The position numbers and the translations under genes were made by a program. A stretch of 62,743 bases of DNA, the filler included, from Porpidia crustulata (Eukaryota), in assembly GCA_964255105.1 (NCBI GenBank). It is 6 parts of 6 records of this genome, joined end to end, with 100 filler letters (N's around TTAATTAATTAA, not from the genome) between each part and the next. Parts side by side here need not be neighbours in the genome. Positions count along the whole stretch, not along the records: positions 52,383 to 62,743 come from CAXUWE010000785.1; 5 more parts are not named here. The stretch is one strand, 5' to 3'. How positions within the stretch are numbered: position 1 is the stretch's first letter; each line of letters opens with the position of its first letter. Below the pieces are notes generated by a model. The model did no database searches. It had not been told where the DNA came from and saw only the letters and a program-made list of their open reading frames with translations. Below are positions 10,386 through 62,743 of the stretch, piece by piece.

Positions 10386-10485
10386 NNNNNNNNNNNNNNN
10401 NNNNNNNNNNNNNNNNNNNNNNNNNNNNNTTAATTAATTAANNNNNNNNNNNNNNNNNNNNNNNNNNNNNNNNNNNNNNNNNNNN
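10386..10485. other. Artificial contig spacer (N44-TTAATTAATTAA-N44)
   Basis: Six-frame stop linker inside an N run; identical at five positions. Confidence 0.98.
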
Positions 10486-11160
10486 GTGATGTGGTGTCGC
10501 AGGGTTTTGGTGGGTAGTGGGTTTATTGATCTAGGATACGAGGGTGTGTGTCGGTGGCTGGAAAAAGATGGTCGATATTTATTGTGATGATGGATTTGTA
10601 TAGATACATGTTGGATAGCAATGGAAGAATGAAATAGGGAGGAAAGTTTAGGGTCAGATGATGGGTCTTGAGAAAGCGGAAAAGAACAATCATAGATTAA
10701 TGATATAAAAAGAAGTTGATCCTACTTCGCCGAGCCATCGATGACATCTAAAACTCCCTGTTGTATCGTCTGTACTTCTGATTTTCGCATCAGTATTGTT
10801 TATCGCAAGCACGCGCTATCGAAGGAAGCGGTTTTTGACAATCAAACGACGAGAGGGGAGGAGATAGGTGAGAGACGCTAGGTATCTAGTCCTTCTCAGT
10901 CTTGTCGAATGCCAAATAGATAGATATACTACAGGCATCGAGGAATTTCGGGGAATAGAAAATGGTAGACAAGATTTTGTTTTTTGCTCTGTGTTCACGA
11001 TCTTTCATGAAGGTCTGTGTTCGATGTAGAAATTCGTAAAAGCAACGTTTTCGTTTCTATAGATAGTCTTTCAACTCGACACTGGTCTTGGGAAGCTTCG
11101 GTCTCGGTTGCGGTAGGTTCAGATACTGAAGATCGAGTGATGTGGCGTAGCTTTGAATAT

Positions 11161-11288
11161 GGAGCGAGTGCAAAGGCTGCCAGGACGATATAGTTGAAGT
11201 TTGGGGGTTTTGTATAGGGTCTTTGGAGCGAATGCAAAGGCTGATGGGACGATAAGGTTGAAGTTCGGGGGTTTTGTATCGGGTCTCG
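11161..11288. repeat. Imperfect 64-bp tandem duplication
   Basis: ggagcgagtgcaaaggctg...gttgaagtttgggggttttgtatagggtc at 11161 is repeated as ggagcgaatgcaaaggctg...gttgaagttcgggggttttgtatcgggtc at 11225. Confidence 0.8.
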
Positions 11289-11795
11289 GTTAACAGGGAA
11301 AGACTTCGTGTTGGCCGACGTTCCAAGGTTTCGCGTCTAGAGTAGCACAGTGGTTTGTTCAAGGAATGAATTATGTGTGGGGTAAAGATAGCATATAAGA
11401 TAATGAAGTATAGAGTTGGAAGAGTAGGAGTCCCATTAAAGGTGTTACTTGCTGGAATGATGCCTCATTGGTGAACTTGTCGTGGTCTTGTCAGTCCTTC
11501 GTCTCCTCAGCGCAAGTCGGGATTCCCATCTTTACTCGATCATCTCTCTATTGCTCCAGATCTTGATCTTTGATAGATCCGAGATCCAAACGCTACGCCT
11601 CACATCGCTCAGTATCGATGTTTTAATTTCGTAGTCTCATGTTAGACATGTCTCTTCTGCGCTTCGATTTCCTTCCAATTCCCGAGTCTCAAAACTGATC
11701 AAGCCATCTCAAATTCAATGGAAGATTGGTATAAGACTCGTCCAAATCGTCATCCTACATACATATTAGCAATGTGCAATCTGTTTCGATGCGCA

Positions 11796-14700: not shown

Positions 14701-16472
14701 CGTCGGGAGGGTATCAGTATCGAGCTCTTCCTCCAAGTCTTCAACGCTATCTTGATCCATAAGATTATCCATGATCAATCGGGTCAGAAGGAACATTCCT
14801 GATAACATCAGCGGCTTTCTAGTCTCACGCCATAAGTGTGAACACACCATCTGGTTTGCTCAATATGCCACTTGTGAGAATTGTCTGCTTCTCAGGACCA
14901 TATCCAAATTTTCTGCACAGATCGGATGACCTGGTATGAACATAGTTCTGTATATCTTGACTAACATGAGAGTGTTTGATATCGAAGCGAACGGCGGATC
15001 TGAGTGACTCATTAATATCGTTCATTCTTTGGCTTGTCAGAAAGACCTTAACATTTGCTGTTGAACTAGAAGCTTTCAATATTTTGTGCATCAAGTTTAA
15101 TATCAACTGCCTGTCTACTCCTTCACACTCGTCCAGACCATCGATACCAATAAAAAGCAGGTTGTGTGTTGTGGCTAAATTCTCCAAAATGTCATGATAA
15201 GTTTTGAAAATGGTCGGGTGGCGTTCGCCACTTCCAACAGCCACTTCATGAAGATAGTCGAGAGATACCGGATTTAGATGCAGAAGTTGTGCGATCAAAC
15301 TTCTAGCCATCTGATCAAACGATCTTCTGGCAGGGTCACGACTTTTGCAGTAAAAGTAGATTACTTGAGACTGAGGTCTCAATACACTAATCTCATCCAC
15401 AATGGAACTAAAAAGAACTGTTTTTCCTGCACCAGGAATGCCACAGACCCAGAATATGGTTTTCGTGCAGTCGTCACCATGTAGCTATTTGAGTAAGCAG
15501 ACTTCCTTGTATATCCACCGCGTAATGCGAGGAAATTGGATCCGCTTTCTTTGAAGTTCTTCATGGTCAGTTGAACATGAAGTTGGCGACAGCCAATCAA
15601 AGACCGTTAGCGTTCGATCTTTCTTGATCTGCTCTGACAGCGCTTGGAACTCCATTGTAAATAGATGTCGAGCCTGCTGAGCTTCGTGAAAGTGTGCAAT
15701 GTTCGCTGACTGTAGCAGTAGTTCCTTCGATCTCTCTAGTTTTTTTAAAACGTCCCCAAATAAATCTCCAAATGGATGGAGTGTGACTTTGAATGTCAAT
15801 CTCCACGCTGAGCGAAACAAGTAGGCACCTTCGTCAGCACAAACAAGCTTCGTGGATTATCACTTGGGAAACTGACTGCCCTGTTTAAAGAAGATGATAG
15901 CACGCTTGTGAAATTCCAAGACATCTTCGTATACATTGACGAGGACTTGCTGCACATGAGCGTTGTCGGAGAATAATTGGTCAATCATTACGACCGATGG
16001 GAAAGATTTTCCTATTTTCTCGTGTGCATCGAGAAGGGCGTCAAATGCTTCCGTAACCTTTGACGCAATCTAGAATACTCAAAATTGTTAAAATATCCCG
16101 GGTACACCAATATGGTCCTGAGGGGAAGTTTTCTACGTGGAGGCATAATTTGATTGGACCCTTTGATAGTCTATGTCAGCGATAAGTTCAGACACCATGA
16201 GTAGGGTCACGAACCCAGATACAGGCCAGAATATCCGGTTTTGCGGCAACGAATACTTCAATAACTTTAGCATATTGTGCAAGGCCATTCAGAAATGGTC
16301 GGATCTTGGTGAGATTCTGAGAACCACGTCGCCTGGCTTGCTCTTTTTGGATTTCCGTGATATCTTGCTTGAGATCATCGAACGTTGTCAAGCTAAAGGC
16401 ATCAATGTCCTGCGATGAGAGACGAGTCCGAAAGGAGGCTACTACGCGGGAAAACCCCGAATGATCATTCAT
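11796..16472 (-). pseudogene. NLR-like gene: helical N-terminal domain, NACHT NTPase, winged helix, C2H2 zinc fingers, ankyrin repeats; disrupted
   Basis: Walker A WVCGIPGAGKT and Walker B IGIDGLDEC. Post-NACHT LCGPLVEV..SLVHPTAKQYL. C2H2-like CSVIAC..F..K..RDEHQKRH and CEHRGC..F....L..H. Many ankyrin repeats (TALQHAVSGGNPKIVSLLLEHKANVN). Lesions: in-frame TAG at 15485-15487, in-frame TAA at 12938-12940, frameshift near 12455. Confidence 0.85.
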
Positions 16473-20869: not shown

Positions 20870-20969
20870 NNNNNNNNNNNNNNNNNNNNNNNNNNNNNNN
20901 NNNNNNNNNNNNNTTAATTAATTAANNNNNNNNNNNNNNNNNNNNNNNNNNNNNNNNNNNNNNNNNNNN
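20870..20969. other. Artificial contig spacer
   Basis: N44-TTAATTAATTAA-N44. Confidence 0.98.
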
Positions 20970-31346: not shown

Positions 31347-31446
31347 NNNNNNNNNNNNNNNNNNNNNNNNNNNNNNNNNNNNNNNNNNNNTTAATTAATT
31401 AANNNNNNNNNNNNNNNNNNNNNNNNNNNNNNNNNNNNNNNNNNNN
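31347..31446. other. Artificial contig spacer
   Basis: N44-TTAATTAATTAA-N44. Confidence 0.98.
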
Positions 31447-31723: not shown

Positions 31724-32094
31724 TCGGGCCTAACTTCCGACCCTCCTAAATAGACCACCCACCACCCCTTTGCTTCCTTTCTTCTTTAGCTTTTAGATCT
31801 TTGTTTATTAGCCCCATATCTAGCTAATTCCATCAGCCTATGGCATTATCAATAGGGCCGGGCCACCTCATGTGCACCCTTAACATTTTTTTTTTTAACT
31901 TTTAAATTTTTGTTTATTAAATCTTTTAGTTAAATAATCTTATAAATCTTTGACATTATTATAGAACTGAGTCATTTCAAATGCATTTTTAACAAATTCG
32001 AAGAAGTTTAGAATAAAGCGTTAATTCGAAAAATCTTAACGAATCGATTAACTCGAAGAAACTTAATCGGATTTGACATCGTCTGAGAACTGAG

Positions 32095-33520
32095 GCAAGA
32101 TATTCAGGACCTCAACGACTTCTATTGAACATGCCACACCCCTCAGCTCTCAACGCACCGGAACTACTCACCGCAGACCTTCAAAAACAGGTCCTCCATG
32201 ATCGTCTCACCAAGATCAACGGTCCCCCCGAACCCCTATTCATTTCATCCCCCCTAGGACTCGTCCAAAAACATGACGGTGGATGGAGAAGAATACATGA
32301 TCTATCTTATCCTCATGGCCGATCAGTCAATAACGGGATACCGCAAGAGCATGAGGCACTGGAACACGTCACATTCGACGACGGGATAGCTGCCCAACTT
32401 ACTCAGGGCCCTGAAGCAATCCTGGTTAGAAGAGACCTCTCAGACGCTTTCCGCCATGTGCCGGTAGCCACATCGGATTTCTGGCTCTTAGGCTTCTTCT
32501 GCAACGACAGCTACTGAATCGATAGGTTCCTCCCATTCGACCTGCGCACCGCACCGTACATATTCGACCCATTCGCTAAGGGACTTCATTGGATCTTGGC
32601 TGCCCTACTAGACTGATACATCATCCTTTATTACCTAGATAGCTTCTTCGCTATCCTCTCACCGTATACCGACGTAGAGCTTTACTGCCGGCAGTTCAAC
32701 AAGGTATGTAGTCAATTAGGCGTTACTGTTAATCATAAGAAGGATATCCAAGCTACGACAGCTGAGCTTTTGGGAATTGAACTGGACAGCATCAAGATGC
32801 AGGCTAAACTCCTACCGGATAAACTTGAACGCGGGAGAGAAGCAGTCAAAACACTACTAAGCAAGCCTGTTTTCTCCTACCGGGAATTCGAATCCCTGGT
32901 CGGCTTCCTATTATTTGCTGCAAAAGTCATCACCCCAGGAAGAACCTTCCTGCGGCGTCAGAACAAGCTGATCCGCATAAACCGACATATCAGGGCGGAC
33001 CTCACATGGTGGCAAGCCTTCCTACAGGACTGGAACGGTATTAGACTCCTACGTCTCACCAAAGCTAAGGAAGCTCTGCATATCTGGACCGACGCCTCCG
33101 GTAAATATGATATAGGCGGGTTTTTACTCAAAGACCCGACCCAATTAAGGAACGTGCGGCACGTCTTCAGCTCGCGATTCCCATCAAGGCTGATAAGAAT
33201 GGATATCTAATACAAAGAAATAAGAGTAATACTCCAAGTCATTTATACATGGCTTCGCTACCTCCCGGGTAGACACCTAACTATTCACTGCGATAATGAC
33301 GCCATCGTTCAGGGGATCCGCAGATCCACCATAAGAGGACCGGCAATATACCCACTGCGGTCAATTGTTTTACTGCTCGCGCGTTATGACATCGCGACTA
33401 AGATTGAATGGATACCGACAGCGCAATTCTACCTGGCGGACGATTTATCTCGTTTCAAATTCATCAAGATCGCTAATGAATTGCCGCAGTTAGCTCATCT
33501 ACTGAGGGAGTCGGTAAACT
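32095..33520 (+). pseudogene. Reverse transcriptase-RNase H of the YR retroelement
   Basis: ISSPLGLVQKHDGGWRRIHDLSYPHGRSVNNGI; RDLSDAFRHVPV; LPFDLRTAPYIF; YLDS replacing YLDD at 32632-32643; LGIELDS. RNase H IWTDASG, HCDNDAIV, LADDLSR. In-frame stops at 32515, 32614 and 33208. Confidence 0.88.
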
Positions 33521-33528
33521 AGAACCGG

Positions 33529-34597
33529 ATGTATCCTGATATACAAATATCGCCCTCAGCCGACATGCAGCCAGGTTTCTATGGTGGGGACTCTCAGCAA
33601 GGATACGTGCTTCTTATAGCACAGCAACAAGCTCATATATGCTCCACTACGCCATAAACCGCATTCAACCTCCATTCCCAGTTACAATTCAGTCCCTGAC
33701 TAGCTGGGTAGCTGAGCTTGGTATCAAAAAGCTACTCGCAAGCTACTCGCAAAGACGATCAAGGCATATCTTTCGGGCGTCAGATCCGCACAGGTAGATA
33801 TGGGGTTCGCAGACCTCGAGATCTTCCATCATCCCCTACTAGAACGCATTCTAGCCGGGATACGCAGACTCCGCGGCGAGGCTGACACCAAAGAACGACG
33901 CCCTATCACCCGCGACGTCCTCCTGAAGGTGCTGACCCGGTTTAATACTACAACCCGCTATGGGATAATGCTACACGCCGTATTCTGCCTAGCATTTGCA
34001 GGTTTTTTACGAATAGGCGAATTCACCTGGTCCCAAGAAGACTACGCACAATCAGATTTTGTCAACTGGTTCCTAACAAGACGTTCAGTGGAGCTTCACG
34101 AGGACTATGCATTCCTTAAGCTATCAGCATCCAAAACAGACCCTTTTAGAAGGGGCGTAACCCTCACAGTTGCAGCTACCGGCGATCAAGCCTGCGCAGT
34201 CAGCTCCCTGCGGCGACTACTCAGCCAATATCCCGCACCTCCTACAGCACCTCTATTTCACACCGCCAGCGGTATCACTTTTACGAGACGCCTCGTGACC
34301 GACGTCCTCCGTCAGAGCCTAACCAGCCTTGGGCATACAGGCCACTACTCAGGTCATTCCTTCAGAAGGGGCGCAGCGACCTCCGCGCGGAACGCTGGCC
34401 TAACCGACGAAGAGATCATGATATTAGGGCGATGGAAATCTGACAGTTACCGACTGTACATCGACATCGACCCCAACCGCATCCTCAACGCCTCACTACG
34501 TCACCAATCATCCAGATTATTAGTGAGGCAGATCCCTTACGGTACCCGCCGCGGTGCCTGCGGCACCGCATCTCTCTTGGGGTGGTGGAGTTCTTAG
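33529..34597 (+). pseudogene. Tyrosine recombinase of the YR retroelement; N-terminal frameshift, catalytic domain open
   Basis: LAFAGFLRIGEF; SKTDPFRRG; HSFRRGAAT; LGRWKSDSYRLY (R-K-H-R-W-Y set present). An 11-bp tandem duplication AAGCTACTCGC at 33729-33750 shifts the frame between ..WVAELGIKKLLA and KTIKAYLSGVRS. Confidence 0.88.
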
Positions 34598-37352
34598 TAG
34601 CTAGGGGCCAAGCATTGCAGGCAGACAACCGCAGTTGCTGCTTAGTGCTTATGGCCCCCTAGTGCTAGACTAGGGAAACCACTAGGAAACAAGTTTCAAA
34701 AGCATTGTTCGCATTTTTGGAGTTTTCAGGCCTTGGTGCAGTTCAGTAGAACATCAGTTGAAAGCGAAAAGCTGACACTAACGGCCAGTCAACGGTAGGA
34801 AGCACTGTGAACTCACCAACACCAACGAATTTCATACTGTGGTAAGCGTGAATATGGGATTACGCCCCCACATATTGTTTCATGACATAGTGTGATATCG
34901 AGACACGACCCGCTCTGAGCCAATAGTCCCAGCGGACCCCCGGGCGTGGCGGACTGAATATACGATCCGACATATTTATCGCACGGCTAAGTACGCGCGC
35001 AACATTCTTCTATTTACCAATGTCTTCTACCAGTATGAATGGCGCAATAAGCCGGTGCACATACAGGCAGCTAATCTGAAGTTCCCATTTTAAGACAATA
35101 GCTGACTCTTCGAAGTCCACCATCGTCTATAACTTCAGATTCTGTACAGCTTAGTAATTTCTTCGATAATGCATCTTCTTACACGAACATCCATCATCCT
35201 CAGCAGTATTCTTTTATCCCCCTCCAATACCGTTGTCGTCGCTTCAGACTTGGTATTAACTAAACGCCCATCCATCCTTTACAATCTAGACACCTTATCC
35301 GTCTGTCTAGGCTGCTACCCAGGGCCTCTTCAACGTGTCAGTTCTTGATCTTGCACCGCACCAACAAACCGCCGAAACACAATACTCTGATCCAACGAAC
35401 GGTAGCACCATCGTCAGATTCATGATCGGCGACATAAATTACCAGTATGGTTTTCTGGAGAGTCTGGTAACCGAAGCGCTCCACCATCACATGCCTCCAA
35501 AGCTGTTTCCGAATACCAATGCCATCCTATTCGCCTTCAGCCAGAGGACAAGATTTTATGAGATCGTATTGGGGGGTTCGATTGACTATGATGCGGATGG
35601 TCCACCACAGAGATTACAGGAAGCGCAGGCATCTGTGCTATCTGTTCCTCTAACGATTTCCTCTAGGGATAAGATCCGACGACGGACCTATTCCATCCAC
35701 AAGAAAGAGGTGAAAGCCTTGCCTTCCCGCAACGACGGGACATCGGCAAAAGTTCTTAACCCTCTATAGGCGCTATAGTCGCTCATGAGCCGGATAAGTC
35801 AAAAGATTTTATGTCCTGCCTTACGGGCTTCCTGGGCGCCCATGAGCAAGTCGCTTGTGTCATGGGTCAGCACAAAGCACCCTCGGAATCGTTCCGAGCC
35901 GCGAGAAGCAGGCGATCTAGGATGTTTGGTCGCTGCTCGCTGATTCAGCCGGACCCATATTGTGTCGTGGAGGCTACTCGATGAGTACTGCGATCATCCT
36001 CTATACCTTTCACGACACCAGTAGCCACTCAGCCCTTAGCGGTTTTAAATTCGACCCATATCGAGCGCAAGCTCCAATTTGCTGCAGTACGGTCCCCGAA
36101 GCTGCCTCCGTTGCGAATGTTATGAGGATCAGGGACTGAAGGGCAGGCGCTGCTTGATTGAAGGGTTTGGCTCGCTAATTAGACTGATGTTAGAGTGTAG
36201 CTGGTTGTGACGTATGGGAGCTACAGCGAAACGGCGAGCTACTTGAATGGCGCAGCCGATGCGTACCATGTGTTAGAAAGTCTCGATAATTATAGACGGG
36301 AAATTGTTCCAAACGGCCCCTTGTTATGGTTCCTGAATTATGTGATTTCGTGTTGGAATACTGCTTCGGAGCCCCGACCACGATCTGTATCAGAATTCTG
36401 CTTTGACCATGAGATCTCTAGTGACCTCGGTGGATCGAACATATGTCTACCTCTTATACTGCAAGGTCCAAGCTTGTTTCGGTGGTTATGAGCACCATTC
36501 TGGTACAATTGCATCAATATCACTACCATAGCCACAATATATTGCTATACTTAGGGATGTATTATATTTATGTTTCATTGTGTGTCCGACGTCAATCATT
36601 TCTTGAAGTATTTTTCTACCTGCATATCAACAGAAAACCCACGAAATAACCTCATCAAAGTGAATGGAGTATGACTTCGATGATTCCTCAAAAATTACTA
36701 CTTTGTGGAGTGGATCGAAGGCTGTCTGGGAGCGAGAATTATCCAGTACTGTTGCGATGTGTGCCCTCCGAAATCAGCTGTGCAACCAATTGTGGTACCA
36801 GCGAAGAATGTCTCATGGAGCGCACGCTTCCTGTAAGATACGATGCCCGATCTGCATATCGAAGCGACTTCTAATGTGCTGAAAGTATCACATACTTTTG
36901 CTTTTTGACACATGATTATTGAGCTACTTCACCAGCGTTTCTACACTGGTAGCGGATCAAGTACACGCTTTTGGCTTCAAAATCAGGATCCCTCTCGGAA
37001 GACTTCATTTACCTGATCCACTAAGCTGTTGTACCTACTCACATTATGGAATAAATTGGTATGTCGATTATGCACATGATTTACCTACTCGATCCCGCTC
37101 TTGATATTTCCGTACGCGTAGACGCAAAGTCTAGCGACCGTAATTTCCGTTAGACATCTATTTTTCCAGAGCGTCTAGAGACTGAATGTAGGACGTACTC
37201 GTTCTCGAGATACAAAATAAAAGCATAATATAACATACTCATAAAGTATTTCTAATGTGTCGTGAGATTGAAGAGACGAACTTCCGCAGAACATCGGCGG
37301 AAAAATCGATAACAACATTCTGATCTTCTCTCTTACCGAGCGACGTAAATCA

Positions 37353-41815: not shown

Positions 41816-41915
41816 NNNNNNNNNNNNNNNNNNNNNNNNNNNNNNNNNNNNNNNNNNNNTTAATTAATTAANNNNNNNNNNNNNNNNNNNNNNNNNNNNN
41901 NNNNNNNNNNNNNNN
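41816..41915. other. Artificial contig spacer
   Basis: N44-TTAATTAATTAA-N44. Confidence 0.98.
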
Positions 41916-52282: not shown

Positions 52283-52382
52283 NNNNNNNNNNNNNNNNNN
52301 NNNNNNNNNNNNNNNNNNNNNNNNNNTTAATTAATTAANNNNNNNNNNNNNNNNNNNNNNNNNNNNNNNNNNNNNNNNNNNN
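52283..52382. other. Artificial contig spacer
   Basis: N44-TTAATTAATTAA-N44. Confidence 0.98.
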
Positions 52383-53683
52383 GAGCCAAGGTGTAGAAAA
52401 CGAACGTCGCCGTAAAATAAAAAAAAAACCAAGTCAAGCAGATATTGTGTAGGCCTGAGCATGGTGAGAGCTTTGGTGCTGCTCAAGCGTATGATGAGTT
52501 AATGGCACCATTTTTCCCTCCTTCGAATCTGTTGCTGTCAGATCCGCCTTTCCATGGACCGATGAAGGAAACCTGGGGTAGGAGGATGCAAGGCTTACCG
52601 GAAAGAAGTCGTGGCTTCATACAAAGCTGCACGCACTCCCACTTTCGGAATATAGAATCTGGGTCAACAGTGGACCTTTACGAGTCTATGAAGAAACTGT
52701 CATGGAAAGTCTTACTTGGCGTCTTCTTGTCATCATCGGATGAAAATGATGTTACGGAGTCAGAGCTCGTGGAGATCGAGTCGTTGCAAGAAGTCCTTCT
52801 ACGTGGCCAATTCTCGCTGTTCCCCGTAAGCATCAACACCAGGTTTTGGCAATCTCCTCGGGCAAAAGGGCTAGAGGCTAGAAAGAAGCTTCAAGAATTG
52901 TTGAAAGCTCGATTAAGGAGTGGTGAAGCCAAATGTCCATTTGCCATAAATGATGAAGTAGCAAAAACTGACGTAGCATCTCACTTGTTACTGTTTACAT
53001 CTTCTCTGGCGGTGAAAGCATCCGCGTCCATACTGACGGCCTTTTTGCTGAATCTATATGTTGCTCCAAGAAGTGACAGCGATGATGGTACTTCTTTGGC
53101 TAGAAGATTGAGGTCTATTGAGAACGACGAGGATCGCAATATGCTGCTCTATAGTACCCTTCTTGAAACCGAACGCCTATCCCCTCCAGTTGTTGGAATC
53201 ATGCGAAGAAGCTTAAAAGAAGTAATTCTGACATCCTCACAACCAGGTACAATGGATACCTTCATCCCGAAGGCCTGGGATGTTTGGATGTACTTTGTTG
53301 GGGCAGCACGCGATCCAGTCATCTTTGGATCAACAGCTGAGAAATTCTTGCCAACTAGATATTATCATTCTGATTCAATAGACGGAAAAATGGAAGGCTT
53401 TGCTTTCGGGGATGGTCCTAAAGCCTGTCTCGGGGGTAGTATGATGAGAGAGATCATGACGACGGTTGCTAAAACTTGTATTGGTATATTGCCGGCTGGA
53501 TCCGAGGCAAACATGAGATTGGATATACAAGCAGACGCAGGAAGTATTCCCCGTGGTGTACAGGGTTGGCTGGGCTGGCAGACAAATGTGCTCCCAGAGG
53601 AATGGGCGAAAGATATGAAACAGCTGCCAACACAGCGACCTGTGAAAGCGATAGATGTCAAGATTGTGCATGACATTCATTAG
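52383..53683 (+). CDS. Cytochrome P450 with atypical I-helix; 5' end cut by contig start
   Basis: K-helix ETERLSPPVVGIMRR; RDPVIFG..AEKFLPTRY meander; heme motif FAFGDGPKACLG. Confidence 0.88.
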
Positions 53684-53736
53684 AAACTCTTCTAGATCGT
53701 TCCCTTATCAAGAAATTCTCAAATCTAGATCACAGA

Positions 53737-54240
53737 TCATAACGCAGTTTTGCCCGGCGATGACAGTACACCTTTTTCTCTCAACACAGTCACAAACTTC
53801 TCTGGATCCCCAGCACAACCTGCCAGCTCCGAGCTTTCCACGACAACCGTGAGATCTCCCTCCTTGTCGCCAGAAAGCACCACCGGGAAACGCAAATGAT
53901 TCGACTCGACGTATTTTTTCGTCTGATCGGAATGAAAAACTCAATTTCACAGCCCATTACGAGCATTTTATCATCTGTAATAAAAACGAAAGTTACGCAC
54001 CTGCTCATCCAATTCATCCCGATGCAGCTGCTTAATCTCTAATCCCCCCTCCTCAGCAACCTGCCGCTTCGCCTTCTTCCATCCAGCCGTCTCGTCCAGA
54101 TGCAGCCCGCCGTGCGTGATATCGCAGGCGGCGCATACGGGGCCGTCCTTGGTGCTGGAGGTGAGCTTCTTGTAGCCGTAGGAGAGTTTACCCATGACGG
54201 AGGCGTCAGCGTTGTAGAGGATGTAGAGGGTTGAGGTCAT
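53737..54240 (-). CDS. Small thioredoxin-fold-like protein with CxxC, 2 exons, ~140 aa
   Basis: Exon 1 MTSTLYILYNADASVMGKLSYGYKKL..VCAACDITHGG..LHRDELDEQ; GTGCGT...CAG intron; exon 2 TKKYVESNHLRFPVVLSG..ELAGCAGDPEKFVTVLREKG..TAL*. Confidence 0.7.
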
Positions 54241-54519
54241 TTTTTTTGGGCTGGAGCAGGTAACTTGGGGGAAGGGGAGTTAACAATTTTTAGACCGTGG
54301 ATAATGGAAGGTGAATGCGATGGTTGATCAGAGGATATGTTTAGTATTGAGCGATTGTGGTGGATGTTGAGAAGGTTTTTTAGATGTTGACAGCGGGAGC
54401 GGGTCAGAAGGCGTCAGCTGCCCAATCCAAATTCTCTCCAAATGCATCGTAATCGTTTTCAAGGCGCTCTATTCGAAGAAACCAATGCATCTCGTGTTCA
54501 ACAGATTATCTAGTCAAGA

Positions 54520-56716
54520 ATGCGGCGTCCTATTAATCTTGACGTCGTAGTCATTGGATCAGGTGAGTTGCAGTCTGATCTAAGATTTCACTAGCGATGC
54601 TGATGCAAAACGAAAGGCCTTTACGGAATCCAGGCAGCGCGATACTATTTGGATATTCATCCGGAAGCAAACCTTCTTATTCTAGAATCTGATGATGTGG
54701 TGGGGGGAGTGTGGAGTTCAAGTAATGCAATTTCGATTTCATCTCGATTCTTTTGCTCTTCGTAGTTGGAAAACAATTATGGAATTATGATATTTTGGTT
54801 TGATAGAAGTCAAAGTTTCCTTCTCGTTGGTACTCACATCCTGTAAATGTTTGGCGTTTATGTTTGCCTTGCCAGTATTGTGACTCATTTCCCCTGTAAT
54901 GCTACACTGCATTATAAGGTCGAGAGCTGCTGAACATCCCGCTTTACGTCCACTTACATATACTCACTACGCCATCAAGAAAGAGTATACGATGCCTTCT
55001 GGACACAGACCCCAACCTCAATGGCTGAATTCTCCGACCGCCCTCTCCCACCAATCCCAGAATCAGAACAATACTACAATTTCTTTCCAGCAAGGTACAT
55101 CACGGCATATCTAGAGTCATACATCGATTCCCATATCTACAACGGACAAAGCCTTCGCTCTCGAATTCTTCTCAATACCAGTGTCACCAATATCGCTAGA
55201 CTTCCGGACAGAGCATGGCAAATCACCTGCAACCTATCTTCCCGAATCTTCACAACTCCTCGCCTCATCGACGCAACAGGCTTGACATCTCTTCCTCACA
55301 TCCCCCAAATCCCAGGTCAAGACGTATTCCAGGGCCTTGCCCTTCACCACAGATCCTTCGGCCAATCTACCTTCCTCCAAGACCCACATTTACAGCACAT
55401 TGCCATTCTGGGTGGTGCCAAATCAGCAGCAGACGTTACCTACACGGCAGCAAAAGCAGGCAAGACGGTCTCGTGGATTATTCGAGACGACGGAAATGGC
55501 CCCGCCGCGTTCTTGGGTGCGGAGGGGAAAGGACCGTATAGGAATTCCAACGAAAGGTTTTACACCAGATTCGTCGCTGCATTGCTGCCGAATCCTTTCG
55601 CTGATGGGCGGCCAAAATTGGTAGAGCGTGTGTTGCATCAAACGAGGGTGGGGAGGTGGATGTTTAAGAAAATTTGGGACCGTGTTGATAGGGAGAGTAG
55701 GAGAAAGGCAGATTATAGGAGGGATGAAGGCAGAGGTATGGGATTTAAGGAATTGGAGCCAGATACACCGTAGGCCGCATGGTATTTCGTTTCGTAAGAT
55801 GCCGAGAGCTAATTTTCATGATTAAAGGGTATTTTGGCAGAACGACAGTTCAGGCGTGAACCAGCGACCAGATTTCTTCGAGACGATCGCGACTAAAGTC
55901 CATATATACCGCCAATCTATCGACCATCTATCATCTAATTCTATAGCACTCCGATCCGGGAAAGATTCTGATGAGAACCCATTCTGCACTATACCTGTGG
56001 ACGTTCTAGTCTACTGCACTGGCTGGACTCTGAATAGCCCTATATATTCGCAGTCCATGGCTTATGAATTAGGTCTCCCGGTACCGCTCTCGGACGCTAA
56101 CGCCAAAATAGAATTGCGGTGGAAGGAGCTTGACGCATCTGTGGATGCCGAAGTACTTCTGCGGTTTCCCGGTCTGACTGAACCTCCAACTTACCGAAAG
56201 TCGACGCCGACCCTTACACCCTTTCGCCTTTATAAAGCCATGGCCCCAATTAGCGATATCGAAGATCATTCAATTGTCTTCCTCGGCAAAACGGTCGTCG
56301 GTAATAATTTTCGTGCTGCTGAGGTTCAAGCGTTATGGGCTGTTGCATATCTTGATGGAAACTTAGAAAGCTTGATGGATGATTTCCATGCAGGATCTAG
56401 AGACGACAAAGCGAGACGAATCCAAAGAGATGTTGCCATGACCGTAGCTTGGTGTGGGAGACGATATCTGAACAAGGGAGAACTGGGTAATTGGTACTAC
56501 TTCGACATGATCAGTTACACTGATATGCTTCTGGCGGAGCTGGGCCTGTCTAGTCACAAACGGAGGGGATGGCTAAGGATTCTCTTCACACCATGCCGAG
56601 CCGTGGATCTGAATAACCTGGTACATGAGTATATAGCTCGGTGCAAGTCGGTGACAAAACCCATCCGACTTCAAGGCCCGGCGGTCTCACCGAAATGTAG
56701 CGAGGAGGCAGGATAA
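54520..56716 (+). CDS. Class B flavin-containing monooxygenase (FMO/BVMO-like), 4 exons
   Basis: DVVVIGSG|LYGIQAA FAD motif; VGGVWS; ATGLTSLPHIP; FMO fingerprint FQGLALHHRSF; NADPH motif ILGGAKSAAD; DVLVYCTGW. Confidence 0.92.
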
Positions 56717-56742
56717 GTCAATGTCTCCGAGGATCGTCCAGC

Positions 56743-57720
56743 TCAGCATGTCTTCGAGTCCAACGCTTGATACTGGCTCCTAGCGACCCATTCAAAAGCA
56801 GTGTCCCACCAAGTAAAGAACGGTGCGTAGTATCTCGTGCCAGTCTGATGGTGTTGGCTATGCCTCCTGCTCCCAGCCGCCCACCCTTGTGGCAGCAGCT
56901 TGTCATAGCCCCATACCAAATCCATACCCGAATGTATGTCAACCAATAGCCATACAAATATTGGAATGAAGAACGTGCGAGTGAGAACATGCGAGCCAAT
57001 GATGTTGAGGGAGAAGTTGGCCAGCAACACCAATCCAAGTCTTTCGATGATATCCAGCTGGTTCGTAACCTGTGGGTTGATCTCGGCATGACCGTGGTGT
57101 ATCTTGTGGATCTTCCGGAGCATGGGCAGCTTATGTAAAGCTAAATGGAAGAGGAAAAACACGCCGTCGTATATGAAGAAGCTCAGGGCGAGTTCTAAGA
57201 CCAGTTGCCTACTTGTAGGAGGTAGTCGGGGCAAGGCACGCTGTGTCTGTAATGGAGATTTGAAAGTGAATCGATGCAGCGTTGGCGCAAGGAAATTGCC
57301 CCGCATGGCCACAGTATCTGGATCATAGTTGCCGGAAACGGCCATGTCTGATACAGACACACCGCCGAATTTCTTGATCATGGTGAGATCGAGAAGCAGC
57401 AATGGTGCCATATAATTTATTCCTTCTCTTATGCGATTGGATGGCCGCTGCAGCTTAGGAAGATTGCGATTAGCCGGAGTTGCGTTGCCTTGAACGGCGA
57501 AGCGTAGCTGAGGGTTATGGGCAAATCTGTATGTGTAGAGAGGCTCGATGACTGCATAGCATATGACCGTCCATATCGTCTCGAATGTGGAAGACTTGAA
57601 GAGAGAAGTAGTGCAGACATAGCCATAGAGATGGTCAAGGTATGGTTGGTAGATGGTTGGACGTAGTAGGGCGCTTCCTAAAAGGACAAGGAGACACACG
57701 CGTGGAAAGAAAGCCGTCAT
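56743..57720 (-). CDS. Fatty acid hydroxylase/sterol desaturase superfamily di-iron enzyme (cholesterol 25-hydroxylase-like)
   Basis: His boxes FHLALH, IHKIHH, DIHSG and HSQHH, followed by YYAPFFTWWD; hydrophobic segments. Confidence 0.88.
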   Translation of the reverse strand: MTAFFPRVCLLVLLGSALLRPTIYQPYLDHLYGYVCTTSLFKSSTFETIWTVICYAVIEPLYTYRFAHNPQLRFAVQGNATPANRNLPKLQRPSNRIREGINYMAPLLLLDLTMIKKFGGVSVSDMAVSGNYDPDTVAMRGNFLAPTLHRFTFKSPLQTQRALPRLPPTSRQLVLELALSFFIYDGVFFLFHLALHKLPMLRKIHKIHHGHAEINPQVTNQLDIIERLGLVLLANFSLNIIGSHVLTRTFFIPIFVWLLVDIHSGMDLVWGYDKLLPQGWAAGSRRHSQHHQTGTRYYAPFFTWWDTAFEWVARSQYQALDSKTC

Positions 57721-58048
57721 GGGGGAGCTTAGTAGAGACTGAGGGAGTCCACGATGCCAGTAGAAGCGAAAGCTCGAGTCTACTGGTATGCTTCAGTTGG
57801 ATGCTGGAGGAAAGCCTCTCCCGCAGGTTGCCAGGCGGAAATAAAAAATTGCCCCGCCAAGTTCATCTATGATCGATAGCGGGGAATGTCATCGTCATTG
57901 CGAAACAAGCTTGTGTCGAAACGCAGACAGTAGCCGGTTTCCTAATGTAGCGTACTTGGAGCCGTATAGATTTGGAAACCCGTCTCTGCTAGTTTGTTAC
58001 TTGAGACTATGAATGCGCAAGATCTTTTCGTTCCTGCTTTCTATAAAT

Positions 58049-58666
58049 ATGTTTGACATCCGCTTACGAGTTCTCAAGGATGGTATCTTTCAACCTTTAT
58101 GCCGATATATACCAAGCTACATTGCTCCGGTCCACATAACCTTCGCCGCTTTTGTTGCTGGTATTCTTGCATGCTATTCAGCCAGTCAAAAGAGAATCAG
58201 TATTTCCTTATTCCTCTGGGGGCTGAACCGAGTCCTTGACTGCTTAGACGGTACACTGGCCCGTCATCTTGGCATTGCGTCTGACCTAGGTGGATTCCTG
58301 GATCTCCTTGGAGACTTGATTGTTTACTCCTTGATACCGCCTGCAATCGCAGCAGGATGGAAGAGTACAGCCGGCGGTTGGAGAGCAGTCGCAATCCTCG
58401 AAGCATCCTTTCACATTAACAATTTCGTGCTGTTCTACATTGCTGCTGTCGCAGAGAAATGGGGAGCTAAAGGCGGAAATAAATCACAAGAGTTGACGAG
58501 CGTGACGATGAAACCTGCACTGATTGAAGGTATGGAGAGCGGGTTGCTCTTCACGACTATGCTGGTATGGCCCAGCATGATCGAGCAGTGGTGTTGGATC
58601 ATGGCTTGCCTTGTGGCCGTAGGTACTACTCAGAGGATAGCTTGGGTTGTGCCAGCGTTGAGTTGA
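58049..58666 (+). CDS. CDP-alcohol phosphatidyltransferase family protein (stand-alone, ~205 aa)
   Basis: Signature DCLDGTLARHLGIASDLGGFLDLLGD (DxxDGxxAR...GxxxDxxxD); PVHIT N-terminal motif; several TM segments. Alternative ATG at 58013. Confidence 0.9.
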   Translation: MFDIRLRVLKDGIFQPLCRYIPSYIAPVHITFAAFVAGILACYSASQKRISISLFLWGLNRVLDCLDGTLARHLGIASDLGGFLDLLGDLIVYSLIPPAIAAGWKSTAGGWRAVAILEASFHINNFVLFYIAAVAEKWGAKGGNKSQELTSVTMKPALIEGMESGLLFTTMLVWPSMIEQWCWIMACLVAVGTTQRIAWVVPALS

Positions 58667-58969
58667 TCTTCTCATTCTTCCTTTCCACCCAGTTGCTTCC
58701 CAAGCTTGAGAAGCTCAACGAAAAAGGAACTTGCAATGGAAAGGAGGAAAATTACGGTACACGCCACAGAAGCTGGTAACTTTCATCTGGCTTGCCCCAC
58801 CAAAGTCAATGTTTTCATTTAAAAGGGTTTGAACAATTGCAGTAAACCAGCAGCACACATTTGGAGACATTGGAGAACTACATGACCAGGCGCCATTCAC
58901 TGCAGCACTGAGCAACCCAAGGATTATATTGGTGAGTCCTATTTACGATAGAGCAAAGGTGAACGTCAG

Positions 58970-60582
58970 ATGGATAAGTCATCGAGAGAGAAAGATCAAG
59001 ACATCAACGAGCAGCTGGAAGTAGTGGAAACAAGACATGCGCAGGGCGAGTTGGTAGCAAGGCCCGTGATACCAGCATGGAGGGTCGCAATCTCACTCGT
59101 GCTTCTCTTCTTGAACTACTTCCTCGCTCAGTATGACAAATTTATTCTATCTTACTTCCAGGATGAGGTCATTAAATCCTTGAACCTGTCGACATCATCC
59201 TATGGAGTCCTATCAGGCTATGCCACAGGCATTGCTTATGCTTTGCTCGCAATTCCTACTGCTTACATCGCCGATTATACTGGCAGGAGAGTGTGGGTTC
59301 TTACCATTACCGCAATATGGTGGAGCCTGTGTGCAATTTTTCAAGGCCTCAGTCGAAACTTCTGGCAGATACTACTGGCACGGATTGGGATGGGAATCGG
59401 TCAGGCACCTGTAGAAGCACTTAGCGTGAGTCTCATTAGTGACATGATGGGTAAAGAGTATGTTTTTATTGGGGAAAGGTACGTTGATAGGGCCTGGGAA
59501 AACTTAGTAACATTCGGATTTTCGCTGATCCAAGAATTAGTATACTATATGTAGGTGTGTACATCGGAGAAGCTGTCAGTGGTCAGATTGCTGTGGCTTT
59601 TGCCGAAACAAATACCCCATGGAATACTGCCCTAATCGCAATCGGGATTGTAGGCATCGTTGTGGCGGTTTTGATCCGACTTCTGGTTAGAGAGCCTCTG
59701 CGCCAGACGTCTTTGGTCGACTCTAGAGCTCTCAATCATTTGGGAGAGCACCCGCATATAATCTCCACCAGTACGATGCTTGCTTTCGCACGCAGCGATT
59801 TGGCGGCTACCATCAGCTATCTCGCACACCTGCGGTCTTTCTGGTTGCTCACACTCTCGGCCTCCTTTCGCCAGCTTTCTGGCAACGTGTTTGGCTTCTA
59901 CATGCCCACGTATCTCTCGAGTCTCTACCCATCTCACACCGAACTTCTCTCTCGATATGGGATCATTGTTGGTGTAGTCGGATCCGTCGCCGTTCTTCTT
60001 GGTGGCTTGTTGACCTCATTCTTCTGGGGCAGGACAAAACTCCTGTCCATTTATCTGACCGGAGTGGGTGGTATGGTTTCATCCGTTTTTGTTCTGCTCA
60101 TGGTATTCTCTCGATCAATTGCTGGCGGTAGCGAAGACAAAGGTGTGACGATTCTTTATGGCACCATGAGTGCTGCCTACCTTACCGCGGAGCTCTGGCT
60201 AGGCGCACTGAATAGTCTGATCGCGCTACTGCTGCCTCCGCGATACAAGACCTTTGGATTGGCTATATGGGCGGCAGTCCAAGTCTTGGTGTATTCGGCA
60301 GGGCCAGAGATAATCGGCTTGGCTCTAAGGAACGTTCCCACAGATAGCCAAGCTTATAGCGTCAGTACAGAGGTTGCCTTGGCAGTCATCATTCCTGTTG
60401 GCTACTGGATCGCGGGCCTGGGGTTTTTACTTGCAATACCTTTACTGAGACGAGACCTGGATGACGACTTTGTTCGTGGTAGCTTAAGGTTAGGAAGGAA
60501 GGCTGGGTACGGAATCTTTTCTATAATTCTTGGAGGATTGGTGATTGGTCTATTTGCGACGAGTCTTGTTTATCGAGTTTGA
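58970..60582 (+). CDS. MFS transporter, Spinster-like, one intron
   Basis: LLFLNYFLAQYDKFILSY; AYIADYTGRRVWVL (motif A-like); ILLARIGMGIGQA..SVSLISD; about 12 hydrophobic segments. Confidence 0.85.
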
Positions 60583-61076
60583 AAGTTCCTCGGCGTGACG
60601 GTTTAGAAAACAATCTACCTCTTATTCCCGACAGCCATTGTGATAACGTAAACGCACATAAGATACTCTTAATTGTGTGTCCATTCATCCTTCTATCACT
60701 CCTCGTACAGCGTACCGCTATGCATTCCCATATTTAACCATCGAGCAGGAAGAAGCAACGGAAACAGTAATCTGTTACAACTTATCAGTAGTATTTCATA
60801 TTTGAGGTATGATACGGAAATTTATTAGGATACCACCCAATTCATAAAGTCGTTCTCTGATATTATTTGACTGTTTCCGTGTAACCTAGACGATTTAAGC
60901 AACGCTCCTCCCATGTAGCAGCTGTCTACTGATATGGCTAGAATGAATTTCCTAAAAGCATGCCCTCCACTTTCACTATGACTGCTGTAACTGTGCCCTG
61001 GCAACTATATTTCATCATGCCAGCCCCAGTGCCTCGTTGTCATCCAAATGATTGACTTCCATCCTCTGCAATGCAC

Positions 61077-61891
61077 CTATGTACTTCTGACCCTTTTCCC
61101 CCCACACCTCCGCTGCTCGAGTGCTCTGTTGGCGCGCGCTTTCTCTTGGTCTTTCGACCACTTCCGCGGGCTTCCAATCTTTATCTCGCCTCTTTCTCCC
61201 CGGCGTCTCTTGGTAGGCGATCGCGAAGACGGGCTGAATGAGACCGAGCTACCATCTTCCTCTTCATCTTCTAATTCGTCATTGTCGATTGGCCCGCAAC
61301 GAGTTGACTCCGGCATGATTGGAACGAAGGGGACGCGCAGACGCTGCGGGCTCGAGCTCCAGAATGTTTCCGTGAAAAGCAGGGAAATCCAATCCATAGT
61401 GATTGCCATGTAGTAACTATTCCACGACTGGGACCGGACTGCTATTTCCAGTATTATTGAAAGGTTCCCCGGATCGTGGCAGATGGGCCATATTGTACCC
61501 CCAAAAACCCTTAGCTCCCATGCCGACCCTACTTCAGTACAAGTAGCGCCTGGAGATGAGGGGAATGGGAGCCCAGATGCCATACATTTGGCTTCTCTGA
61601 TGCATCTAAATTCAAGGACGTGGGATATTTCGTGACACAGCAGCACAGCGGTCATAAAGTATGCTGCATGTCTCCTGTACGCAGTGCTCCCGGGGTCGCT
61701 GATTGCCTTGACGAGTTGATAATCTCAGCGGCGAGATGAGCGCGCACAAAGACGAATTTGTGGACATGTTCAGCGAGATCCACGAAACAGGAACCTTCGA
61801 AGTTGCTATCATACCGGATGCCGGGCATTACATTACAGAGGAGAATCCGGTAGGATTTACAAGAGAGGTGTTGAAGTTTGTGCAAAGTCAT
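61077..61891 (-). CDS. Hypothetical protein with HExxH motif; apparent frameshift near 61720, possibly a pseudogene
   Basis: FMTAVLLCHEISHVLE and downstream EVGSAWELRVFGG. The upstream coding-like sequence is in a different frame. Confidence 0.45.
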
Positions 61892-62743
61892 ACCACCTCA
61901 TGATTGCTAGTATAGGGTATGCTGATGCCTAATCGGCAGCCAGTTACTCCTTGAGCATATTCTCGCAGGTGCAAACACCCAATCTTTCCCGGATTTCAGC
62001 AGCGAGATTCGCTCAACCGCTTTCTTCTGTTGATATCCACAATGAATCATCTAAGCAGTTGATCATGCGGCGACTCGTGCACGACAAAGCGTAGAGTTTC
62101 CTGTGCTCTGTGTCCCAAGCAGTTTACACTCCGTGGGCTTCTAGAAACCCCGAAGTGTGTTTTTGATAGATGTCTTTCCTTACTGCCATATAGATTTTAA
62201 CATCTTCAGTGTGCTTTCCACTCTTTAATGCACTTTCATCATTTACAGAGTGAGTGGAGAGCGCTTAAGCAGATAGATCACTCAGCGTTCTTTCTTGAAT
62301 GGAAAAAATTCTTTCTCGACGGATGAAACTATCATCGACAAGGACAGGACGCCAAAGCAATAGACTGTTTCATATTTTGCAGACTGAAGAGCCTTGGGGG
62401 GCATCAGTATATCACTTGTCTCCATGTTTCCTCGACTGAGGAAGTTCAAATGTACCGGGGTTTTTGAAAGGAAGAATAGATACGAAGAAATAGTCCTAGA
62501 ATTTATACGAGGGTCATCATCGCCATATTCACACAAATATTCAACAAAAAATCGGTGACACATACATTCACCCGCGAAGCCCTTTGTCCACGAGGAAGTA
62601 GACAACCGATGGTGTGACTCGAAACGTCGCTGTAACATGTAAGAGATTACGATGGGGTAGAAATTGGGAATGTCGCGGTGGATCAGATGACTGGACTTGT
62701 GGGAAAAGGAATGGGGCTGGAAAAGGGTTCGGGGCTAGCTGGG

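Follow-up and report, generated by a model that had tools for sequence, protein, structure and literature searches.

Fungal gene clusters for glycolipids such as ustilagic acid, mannosylerythritol lipid and sophorolipid contain neither a polyketide synthase (PKS) nor a non-ribosomal peptide synthetase (NRPS); they build on a primary-lipid scaffold and are missed by genome-mining tools that look for a core enzyme. Among CDP-alcohol (cytidine diphosphate alcohol) phosphotransferases, the insect ceramide phosphoethanolamine (CPE) synthase acts on ceramide. In Bacteroides, an inositol-lipid cluster combines MIPS, the phosphatidylinositol phosphate (PIP) synthase BT_1523, a PIP phosphatase and a phosphatidylinositol (PI)-dihydroceramide synthase, and an 'alternative' CDP-alcohol phosphatidyltransferase cluster is also present, according to the available portion of that study (PMC9246714). 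Paralogs of ceramide synthase, the superfamily that carries the TLC domain, occur in fungal mycotoxin clusters as FUM17/FUM18 and ALT7, again according to the available portion of the source (PMC13161914). Here, we describe a cluster in Porpidia crustulata, located on contig CAXUWE010000785.1 of assembly GCA_964255105.1, which is the last piece of the 62,743-nt stretch of DNA analyzed (the window). The contig encodes a cytochrome P450 (P450), a small protein with a CxxC motif, a flavoprotein monooxygenase (FMO), a di-iron hydroxylase, a CDP-alcohol phosphotransferase and a major facilitator superfamily (MFS) transporter. We propose, with a probability of about 0.5, that these are six of the seven genes of a self-contained fungal cluster acting on a lipid of primary metabolism, the seventh gene encoding a TLC-domain protein.

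A gene set retained through rearrangement

An alignment of 23 transferases (that of the window and 22 relatives) was used to query metagenome contigs, which were scanned with 10-kb flanks. The scan returned 576 pattern matches, of which 84 encode a relative, and the best 80 of these 84 represent 79 loci. Dereplication at ≥95% nucleotide identity yielded 33 groups, 18 of which retain 7 kb or more on each side. Partner genes were searched for by tblastn with pieces of the window's open reading frames (ORFs), and later with extended queries. The preliminary description of this DNA had named co-localization across fungal genomes as its check, and the genes are not scattered: at least four partners are kept in 15 of the 18 groups, at least five in 13 and all six in four (counts per gene are given in Table 1). 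When 2306 ORFs of 25 representative loci were all compared with one another, the six families emerged, along with the TLC family.

Gene order is fluid, with at least five different arrangements. The most conserved adjacency is that of the hydroxylase and transferase genes, which are head-to-head in 18 of 19 representatives, window included. As a control, we considered the ORF families found in at least five of the 25 loci: all of them fall within the seven genes, in either the true or a shadow frame. The widest family from outside the set, a SLAC1-type transporter, occurs in four loci of one lineage. The seven genes are kept together by selection. It is very improbable that the set is a case of microsynteny among genes without a functional link, or that this particular genome carries a remnant in decay. 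Membership outlasts at least five gene orders and no flanking family goes beyond four of the 25 loci, which argues against the former. The latter draws on the two in-frame stops at the truncated 5' end of the P450; however, coverage of the contig is low, both stops fall within its first 38 nt, and the other five genes are intact, with catalytic residues that do not vary.

Core enzymes were looked for in the flanks of the orthologous loci. Of 220 flank ORFs listed at a length of at least 140 aa, 27 located inside the cluster itself and 20 belonging to L066, which nearly duplicates L065, were set aside. The other 173 (nine loci contributing 122 and five further loci 51) were compared with Pfam. 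They cover 14 loci and reach up to 10 kb from the transferase in either direction, and none of them showed a domain of a PKS, NRPS, terpene synthase or prenyltransferase. The flanks are instead lineage-specific and mostly of housekeeping type, with genes for adenylosuccinate synthetase, a short-chain dehydrogenase/reductase (SDR), DNA primase, Rpb6 and Rad10, together with an acetolactate-synthase-type thiamine pyrophosphate enzyme, TspO, GH31, transporters, a carboxylesterase and retroelements. The hallmark of a canonical secondary-metabolite cluster, a core synthase (PKS, NRPS, terpene synthase or DMATS) beside tailoring genes, was thus absent from these flank ORFs of all 14 loci. The cluster is conserved and self-contained, and has no canonical core enzyme. 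The lack of a PKS, NRPS or terpene cyclase reported for the window, which on its own covers 10.4 kb with a gene cut on the left, therefore holds in 14 orthologous loci. It is accordingly highly unlikely that these genes merely tailor the product of a PKS, NRPS or terpene cluster, with the core gene just off the 10.4-kb contig. The contig ends inside the P450 and 2.1 kb after the MFS gene, so the window alone is uninformative on that point, but the orthologous flanks are lineage-specific, of housekeeping type and free of such domains.

By closest named relative, the loci fall among Lecanoromycetes, window included (66%–73% identity to the nearest matches), and Leotiomycetes, where L065/L066 are a 100% match to a Cadophora malorum protein; a Cryomyces-like form matches at 73%. 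Merged public gene models join the CxxC protein with the transferase in Exophiala (P0269, P0270), with the hydroxylase in Stemphylium (P0240), and with the P450 in a Teloschistaceae genome, Loekoesia (P0237). In P0269 and P0270, a full CxxC protein continues into a transferase that is missing its first residues. These models look like joined neighbors and not proven fusions, and they place the genes next to each other in Exophiala, Stemphylium and Teloschistaceae. In a maximum-likelihood tree of 26 transferases, two clades with full support conflict with the species tree: Lipomyces lies within Pezizomycotina, Lineolata falls inside a Lecanoromycete clade, and Lecanoromycetes are found in both clades. 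The distribution of these sequences thus appears patchy, and the clade pattern suggests that the genes are old paralogs or that the cluster was transferred, with no direction of transfer given by the tree, which is unrooted. Core-based genome mining is blind to a cluster of this kind, even though it is kept across several Ascomycota classes and so marks a real pathway.

Additional genes accompany the set in some loci. An SDR gene lies beside the TLC gene in the L002 group (L002:2228-2863), a GNAT gene stands between the CxxC and FMO genes in L044 (11439-12284), and a carboxylesterase gene follows the MFS gene in the L050, L054 and L059 groups (L050:15422-17191); these are possible accessory tailoring genes. 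In one lineage, that of L056 (10830-15866), genes for a GFO/IDH/MocA oxidoreductase and an O-methyltransferase come after the transferase together with a 3-dehydroquinate-synthase-like gene, a combination that recalls mycosporine or cyclitol genes, and the same GFO/IDH/MocA oxidoreductase adjoins the transferase in L047 (2741-3544). The L056 gene set may be a coincidence or may hint at a cyclitol headgroup.

The transferase defines a separate subfamily

The signature DX2DGX2AR...GX3DX3D characterizes CDP-alcohol phosphotransferases, as given in the available text of PMC9246714. In all 23 transferases aligned here, it is invariant as D76xxD79G80xxA83R84...G93/94xxxD97xxxD101. The structural model of the window's transferase (predicted local distance difference test, pLDDT, 82) has eight helices in a multi-helix membrane fold. 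Its top approximately 30 Foldseek matches are all CDP-alcohol phosphotransferases, the best being the Mycobacterium tuberculosis PIP synthase (template modeling, TM, scores 0.62/0.67), followed by IPCT-DIPPS, AF2299 and other PIP synthases. The best match in a weak sequence-profile search was 4mnd, at 5e-6. The transferase nevertheless scored below every NCBIfam equivalog cut-off in a library that holds no eukaryotic PIS1, CPT or EPT models: the best score was 38.3 bits vs 180 for archaetidylinositol-phosphate (AIP) synthase, and the other equivalogs (PIP/AIP synthase, DIPPS, PssA, PgsA, Pcs, ClsA) gave 15.7–35.9 bits vs cut-offs of 107–580. Judged by profile and model, the protein is a member of PF01066 that appears to stand outside all named bacterial and archaeal subfamilies, forming a separate subfamily predicted to fold most like the inositol-phosphate-using enzymes.

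Membrane proteins with an Asp-rich diphosphate site, of the UbiA type, have been recruited as fungal terpene cyclases, and the transferase-like protein could in principle be the core itself, a non-canonical membrane terpene cyclase or prenyltransferase acting on a prenyl diphosphate. It is the anchor of the cluster, being present in all loci by construction of the search. However, the full CDP-alcohol signature is invariant, including G80, A83 and R84, and structural matches of the model are confined to CDP-alcohol phosphotransferases, prenyltransferases not rising above noise; we consider this the least probable of the alternatives.

At E ≤ 1e-30, the subfamily comprises 148 representative clusters. 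Apart from fungi, named members come from the ciliate Ichthyophthirius and from Ardenticatena and Caldilinea of the Chloroflexota, the phylum with the closest bacterial members. One 572-aa member (P0360) is 36% identical to the window's transferase over the full length of the latter and is fused to an FMO-like domain, itself only generically related to the cluster FMO (28% over 148 residues). Another protein, P0332 (1140 aa), carries a subfamily transferase fused to a CarboxypepD_reg/TonB-type barrel. An Atlas search with the transferase found only generic bacterial CDP-alcohol phosphotransferase clusters, and a scan of bacterial genomes with the fungal profile gave nine loci at 26%–39% identity (56% in a single segment of 36 residues), none of them close to partner genes. 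A closer subfamily member is encoded in five of 301 searched genomes of one bacterial phylum, and in two of these five loci (L099:6514-9979 and L102:6299-14606), it adjoins a CarboxypepD_reg/beta-barrel gene. The L102 transferase is also near Redoxin-type, Pyr_redox_2 and OYE genes.

Oxygenases, CxxC protein, transporter and TLC protein

P450s carry the heme-Cys pocket motif FxxGxxxCxG and ExxR, and typical eukaryotic microsomal forms have a membrane anchor at the N-terminus and, in the I-helix, the acid-alcohol pair A/G-G-x-D/E-T-T/S. Across ten orthologs of the cluster P450, the ExxR motif (E249-T-E-R252) and residues G330, G332, K334, C336 and L337 of the heme-Cys pocket are invariant. No hydrophobic N-terminal anchor was found in any of seven orthologs (Kyte-Doolittle 19-residue maximum ≤0.90 over the first 120 aa). 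The best solved relatives are CYP51 (7e-12, others approximately 3e-8) and CYP120A1 (1.7e-11), all weak at ≤48 bits. On this basis, the protein is probably an atypical soluble P450, nearest to CYP51/CYP120.

Class-B flavoprotein monooxygenases are recognized by two GxGxxG/A dinucleotide motifs and the motif FxGxxxHxxxY/F. The cluster FMO has both dinucleotide motifs and the FMO motif: its translation contains GSGLYG, which spans the exon 1/2 junction, FQGLALHHRSF and GGAKSA. The FMO model is colinear with the single-ORF orthologs of L045 and L058.

In the FA_hydroxylase/sterol desaturase superfamily (PF04116), the di-iron site is formed by the histidine boxes HxxxH, HxxHH and HxxHH. The cluster hydroxylase belongs to this family, with a Pfam score above the cut-off and all three boxes present; H192xxxH196, H205xxH208H209 and H287xxH290H291, along with H244 and H263, are invariant in 12 orthologs. 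A search of PDB sequences returned no solved relative at E ≤ 1. Language-model neighbors in the Atlas carry the names 'cholesterol 25-hydroxylase-like' and 'Related to SUR2' (score 0.93), which we treat as a lead only; the hydroxylase looks SUR2/CH25H-like.

Homologs of the CxxC protein are approximately 142 aa long and have no Pfam family. Across 24 sequences, there is no variation at C38, C41, D42, T44, H45, G46, G47, H76 and D78. The thioredoxin fold is built on a beta-alpha-beta-alpha-beta-beta-alpha core and carries a CxxC motif. Confidence in the model of the cluster protein is intermediate (pLDDT 75, and 50–62 in the CxxC region itself), and the leading structural matches are all thioredoxin-fold proteins, although weak ones (best Foldseek E 1.6e-3). 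By VIA, the best match is likewise a thioredoxin fold (Z 7.3, root-mean-square deviation 3.0, 91 residues aligned). The CxxC motif is placed after a first helix in the model and not at the classical thioredoxin position. The protein thus looks like a thioredoxin-type fold, given weak matches and a model at pLDDT 75. Its gene adjoins the FMO gene in the window and the transferase gene in other loci.

For the N-terminal half of the MFS protein, the best PDB match is 6e8j (2.2e-14), followed by DgoT (4e-5) and human SPNS1 (9boi, 4.9e-5), with SPNS2 at only 0.03–0.1; the C-terminal half had no PDB sequence match. Entry 6e8j, titled only 'Major facilitator family transporter', is presumably a bacterial Spinster homolog. 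The best NCBIfam model is the 2.A.1.14 D-galactonate transporter subfamily (37 bits). The gene model is colinear with the L028 and L054 orthologs. 'Spinster-like' is therefore a lead, since DgoT scores the same as SPNS1. The labels of the preliminary description, 'CH25H-like' for the hydroxylase and 'Spinster-like' for the transporter, remain reasonable leads.

The seventh family is a TLC-domain protein (PF03798), recognized in L002, L050 and L058 at 55.6–71 bits vs a cut-off of 24.6. A fourth copy, on a long ORF of L056, gave no Pfam hit at E ≤ 1e-4. The gene always adjoins the P450 gene, so in the window it would sit just past the left end of the contig. The pair H140/H141 is invariant in six sequences. 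Ceramide synthases have a further motif after this HH pair; by eye, the cluster protein has no such motif, and a PDB sequence search matched it to no solved ceramide synthase at E ≤ 1.

A proposed lipid pathway

The enzyme families present, their intact motifs, the persistence of the set through rearrangement and the lack of a core enzyme in the flanks together lead to a general scheme of lipid modification. The steps proposed in the preliminary description, namely hydroxylation of a sterol or other lipid, capping of the new hydroxyl with a phospho-headgroup and transport of the product, would be a plausible form of it. The substrate would be a lipid drawn from primary metabolism. The SUR2/CH25H-like di-iron hydroxylase and the soluble P450, joined by the FMO in about half of the lineages, would oxidize this hydrophobic substrate. 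The transferase, which resembles PIP synthase and DIPPS and has its promoter region in common with the hydroxylase, would then join a CDP-activated partner and an alcohol as a phosphodiester, with the lipid on either side. The TLC protein, encoded off this contig, may transfer or handle an acyl chain, the thioredoxin-fold CxxC protein may supply or control reducing power, and the Spinster-like MFS transporter would carry the resulting single-headgroup amphiphile across a membrane. Hints that the substrate is a lipid come from the transferase, nearest to PIP synthase, DIPPS and AF2299, from the transporter, nearest to a Spinster-type chain and SPNS1, from the SUR2- and CH25H-like neighbors of the hydroxylase, and from the TLC domain, which marks the ceramide-synthase superfamily. 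The fusion of a subfamily transferase to an FMO-like domain in P0360 also counts in favor of the scheme.

As to the class of lipid, we tentatively place a sphingoid base or ceramide first, because the best-known relatives of the TLC protein, the SUR2-like hydroxylase and the Spinster transporter function in sphingolipid metabolism. The insect CPE synthase adds to this ranking. So does the Bacteroides PIP synthase, which feeds inositol sphingolipids in the account given by the available part of PMC9246714. A glycerolipid or fatty-acyl substrate is less likely, and a sterol or isoprenoid less likely still. Going further, the set may represent a new Ascomycete pathway in which a distinct transferase subfamily and its partners build a new class of phospho-headgroup lipid that is delivered by a Spinster-type transporter to an organelle or the cell surface, a suggestion that we make with considerable reserve. 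The product is possibly a hydroxylated sphingoid or ceramide phospho-cyclitol or phospho-aminoalcohol, serving as a stress or signaling lipid of lichen-forming and extremotolerant fungi.

Several observations weigh against the proposal of a cluster acting on a primary-metabolism lipid. Partners are few or absent in three of the 18 groups (L034 with the MFS gene only, L035 with the hydroxylase and MFS genes, and L068 with none), and the loci are metagenomic, such that several groups may be close relatives and class placement reflects the best named match only. The window's own P450 copy is cut, with two stops at the contig edge. By eye, the P450 I-helix reads F/M-T-S-S-L/I-A-V/A-K, without the usual acid-alcohol pair, and given this helix, the protein may not be a hydroxylase at all. 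The substrate hints are in conflict, with the P450 pointing to sterol 14-demethylases and the hydroxylase, TLC and MFS proteins to sphingolipid-type chemistry. The cluster encodes no cytidylyltransferase for a special CDP-alcohol. Finally, no hydroxylase, P450 or TLC gene lies near the transferase in the five bacterial genomes with a closer subfamily member, and the occurrence of the subfamily in a ciliate, in Chloroflexota and in partnerless bacterial loci implies a function outside the fungal cluster.

Instead of biosynthesis of a released product, the genes could form a module for lipid salvage, repair or remodeling, in which the MFS transporter carries a lysolipid or oxidized lipid across an organelle membrane, the TLC protein re-acylates it, the transferase rebuilds the headgroup, and the oxygenases and CxxC protein handle oxidized chains of fungi that tolerate stress. 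SPNS1 is a lysosomal lysolipid exporter, which fits such a role, as does the fact that the named carriers are largely lichen-forming, rock-inhabiting or black-yeast fungi. One bacterial relative stands beside Redoxin-type, Pyr_redox_2 and OYE genes. In addition, a cAMP-response-element (CRE)-like TGACGT(CA) site is present in the hydroxylase/transferase spacer of ten of 18 representatives (L019, L024, L028, L032, L048, L050, L054, L058, L059 and L069), at 2.0 per kb vs 0.45 per kb in the loci. However, the site is absent from the spacers of the window and its closest relatives (L002, L014), and is not evidence for this locus, while specialized metabolism is the more usual setting for a patchy, rearranged cluster whose accessory genes vary. 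We regard salvage as doubtful.

A cluster directed at a sterol, as the preliminary description suggested, or at an isoprenoid, with a CYP51-like P450 and a CH25H/ERG-type oxidase followed by phospho-conjugation and transport, is rather unlikely. The best solved matches of the P450 profile over most of its length are CYP51 and CYP120A1, and a hydroxylase neighbor, as well as one source's Stemphylium model, is named 'cholesterol 25-hydroxylase-like'. Nonetheless, those P450 matches are weak and the protein appears to be soluble and without the usual I-helix pair, and neither the TLC partner nor the Spinster-like one is known to act in sterol metabolism. We also know of no sterol-phosphodiester lipid made by the CDP-alcohol phosphotransferase family, which counts against this alternative.

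The proposed primary-lipid cluster offers a testable function for three poorly understood groups, namely the transferase subfamily, the TLC proteins that are not ceramide synthases and the fungal Spinster-like transporters. Culturable carriers (Cadophora, Lipomyces) open it to direct knock-out and lipidomics tests.

Gene models and contig layout

All six reading frames were found, in the families given by the preliminary description, as supported by Pfam for all except the CxxC protein. Pfam scores (cut-offs in parentheses) were 38.2 bits (22.8) for p450, 37.3 (30) for Pyr_redox_3 and 29.5 (22) for FMO-like, 58.3 (31) for FA_hydroxylase, 42.8 (22) for CDP-OH_P_transf and 55.2 (33.4) for MFS_1. 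The spacers described earlier as 53, 279, 26, about 330 and about 300 bp also agree with the sequence, which reads 53 nt between the P450 and CxxC stops (53684-53736), 279 nt, 26 nt between the FMO and hydroxylase stops (56717-56742), 328 nt, and 303 nt from the transferase to the MFS ATG (58667-58969). The splice models were made by hand, and by these models, the CxxC, FMO, hydroxylase, transferase and MFS genes are intact.

The P450 gene, by contrast, is cut at the contig edge, a point that the preliminary description overlooked. It aligns with residues 73–498 of the L019 ortholog frame, such that approximately 57 N-terminal residues are absent. Its first 38 nt are homologous to and colinear with the ortholog (homology from 52385) and include an A-rich stretch, yet hold two in-frame stops (TAG at 52394-52396 and TAA at 52418-52420). 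Independent contigs of the same sequencing run show zero differences across 52433-62664, with a word depth of 7–12, but begin at 52433 and so do not cover the stops; an assembly error at the edge and decay cannot be told apart from this sequence.

The preliminary description also overlooked that the window is a concatenation of contigs. The six-gene set does fill the last contig, lying entirely within 52383-62743 (the whole contig, 10,361 nt), whereas the other 52 kb are unrelated contigs joined to it. A scan for runs of N divides the window into six pieces (10385, 10384, 10377, 10369, 10367 and 10361 nt) separated by five identical 100-nt linkers, each made of 44 N, TTAATTAATTAA and 44 N. The central 12-mer, TTAATTAATTAA, is self-reverse-complementary and places a stop in each of all frames. 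The six lengths, almost equal and in descending order, are as expected of contigs from a size-sorted draft assembly joined one after another, and a protein database lists the window's own transferase on a contig of exactly 10361 nt. Since the joined pieces are unrelated, the left 52 kb are uninformative on neighbors of the cluster and any inference across linkers is void.

Table 1. Features of the window and of the cluster. Positions count along the whole window; the fourth column gives the number of groups, among the 18 with at least 7 kb on both sides, in which a partner gene was found.
Feature	Position	Strand	Groups	Description
P450	52385..53683	+	14/18	5'-truncated by contig end; open frame 52421-53683
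CxxC protein	53737..54240	-	15/18	~141 aa; exons 54001-54240 and 53737-53922; intron 53923-54000 (78 nt, GTGCGT...CAG)
CxxC/FMO divergent spacer	54241..54519	.		279 nt
FMO	54520..56716	+	10/18	~608 aa; exons 54520-54562, 54617-54721, 54980-55769, 55828-56716
Di-iron hydroxylase	56743..57720	-	15/18	325 aa, single exon
Hydroxylase/transferase head-to-head spacer	57721..58048	.		328 nt, measured from conserved start M13
CDP-alcohol phosphotransferase	58049..58666	+		205 aa from conserved start, single exon; longest ORF from 58013
MFS transporter	58970..60582	+	16/18	~518 aa; exons 58970-59478, 59535-60582; 56-nt intron
TLC protein			10/18	
ORF right of MFS	61077-61724	-		outside cluster
ORF right of MFS	61712-61903	+		outside cluster
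ORF right of MFS	62282-62734	-		outside cluster
Linkers	10386-10485, 20870-20969, 31347-31446, 41816-41915, 52283-52382			artificial joints
Linker	52283..52382			marks left end of contig with six-gene set; unrelated contigs on either side

To the right of the MFS gene, 2.1 kb of contig remain. The three ORFs there have no Pfam family and no counterpart among the 79 loci, and are therefore not counted as cluster members. The first contains a HEISH (HExxH-like) stretch, and the second, by eye only, resembles the C-terminal end of an alpha/beta hydrolase.

The other five pieces carry actinin-like, RhoGEF, SNF2, NACHT-ankyrin, DUF3433 and ketopantoate-reductase genes. On one of these contigs, a gene at 11057-15484 (-) encodes an NPHP3_N/NACHT domain followed by many ankyrin repeats, typical of fungal NLR-like genes. 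A run of same-strand ORFs at 32077-35769 (+) includes one (33716-34597) with a weak Phage_integrase match (E 1.2e-4, under the cut-off), and is possibly a tyrosine-recombinase (Crypton-like) element.

Comparison with known systems

To our knowledge, this would be the first fungal metabolic cluster organized around a CDP-alcohol phosphotransferase. The preliminary description did not recognize a described pathway, and no description of the gene set turned up in the full-text literature searched, a search that had subscription journals and supplements outside its scope. Nor is the set described in the available portions of PMC9942893, PMC13161914 and PMC9246714.

The cluster resembles the Bacteroides inositol-lipid cluster in that headgroup genes are gathered around a small CDP-alcohol phosphotransferase with the same signature and in a distribution that departs from phylogeny, the Bacteroides cluster feeding sphingolipid-type products, as far as the available sections of that study describe it (PMC9246714). 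Moreover, the nearest solved or curated relatives of the fungal transferase belong to the same inositol-phosphate-using group as the Bacteroides PIP synthase. However, the Bacteroides cluster is bacterial, and its inositol-phosphate synthase, phosphatase, HAD and NTP transferase genes are absent from the fungal cluster. Conversely, oxygenases, a TLC protein, a thioredoxin-fold protein and a Spinster-like MFS transporter are not part of the Bacteroides cluster as presented in those sections. At the level of the single enzyme, the transferase shares fold and signature with the mycobacterial and actinobacterial PgsA1/PIPS and with the archaeal IPCT-DIPPS and AF2299 (TM 0.55–0.67, probability 1.00). 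It differs from PIPS and DIPPS in having only 16%–23% identity, no cytidylyltransferase domain and a subfamily of its own.

The insect CPE synthase is a precedent for this family placing a phospho-headgroup on a sphingolipid hydroxyl, although it is larger and unclustered, and the likeness is one of known function and not of sequence. As in the FUM17/FUM18 and ALT7 clusters, a TLC gene is part of a fungal metabolic cluster tied to sphingolipid chemistry, according to the available text of PMC13161914. In that same text, the FUM and ALT clusters have a PKS core and TLC proteins close to Lag1/Lac1, whereas the TLC protein of the present cluster has no solved ceramide synthase match. The fungal glycolipid clusters likewise combine a P450 and di-iron hydroxylases with acyltransferases and a transporter. 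They are defined by a glycosyltransferase, which the present cluster does not contain; here, the combination is instead one of a CDP-alcohol phosphotransferase, a thioredoxin-fold protein and a TLC protein.

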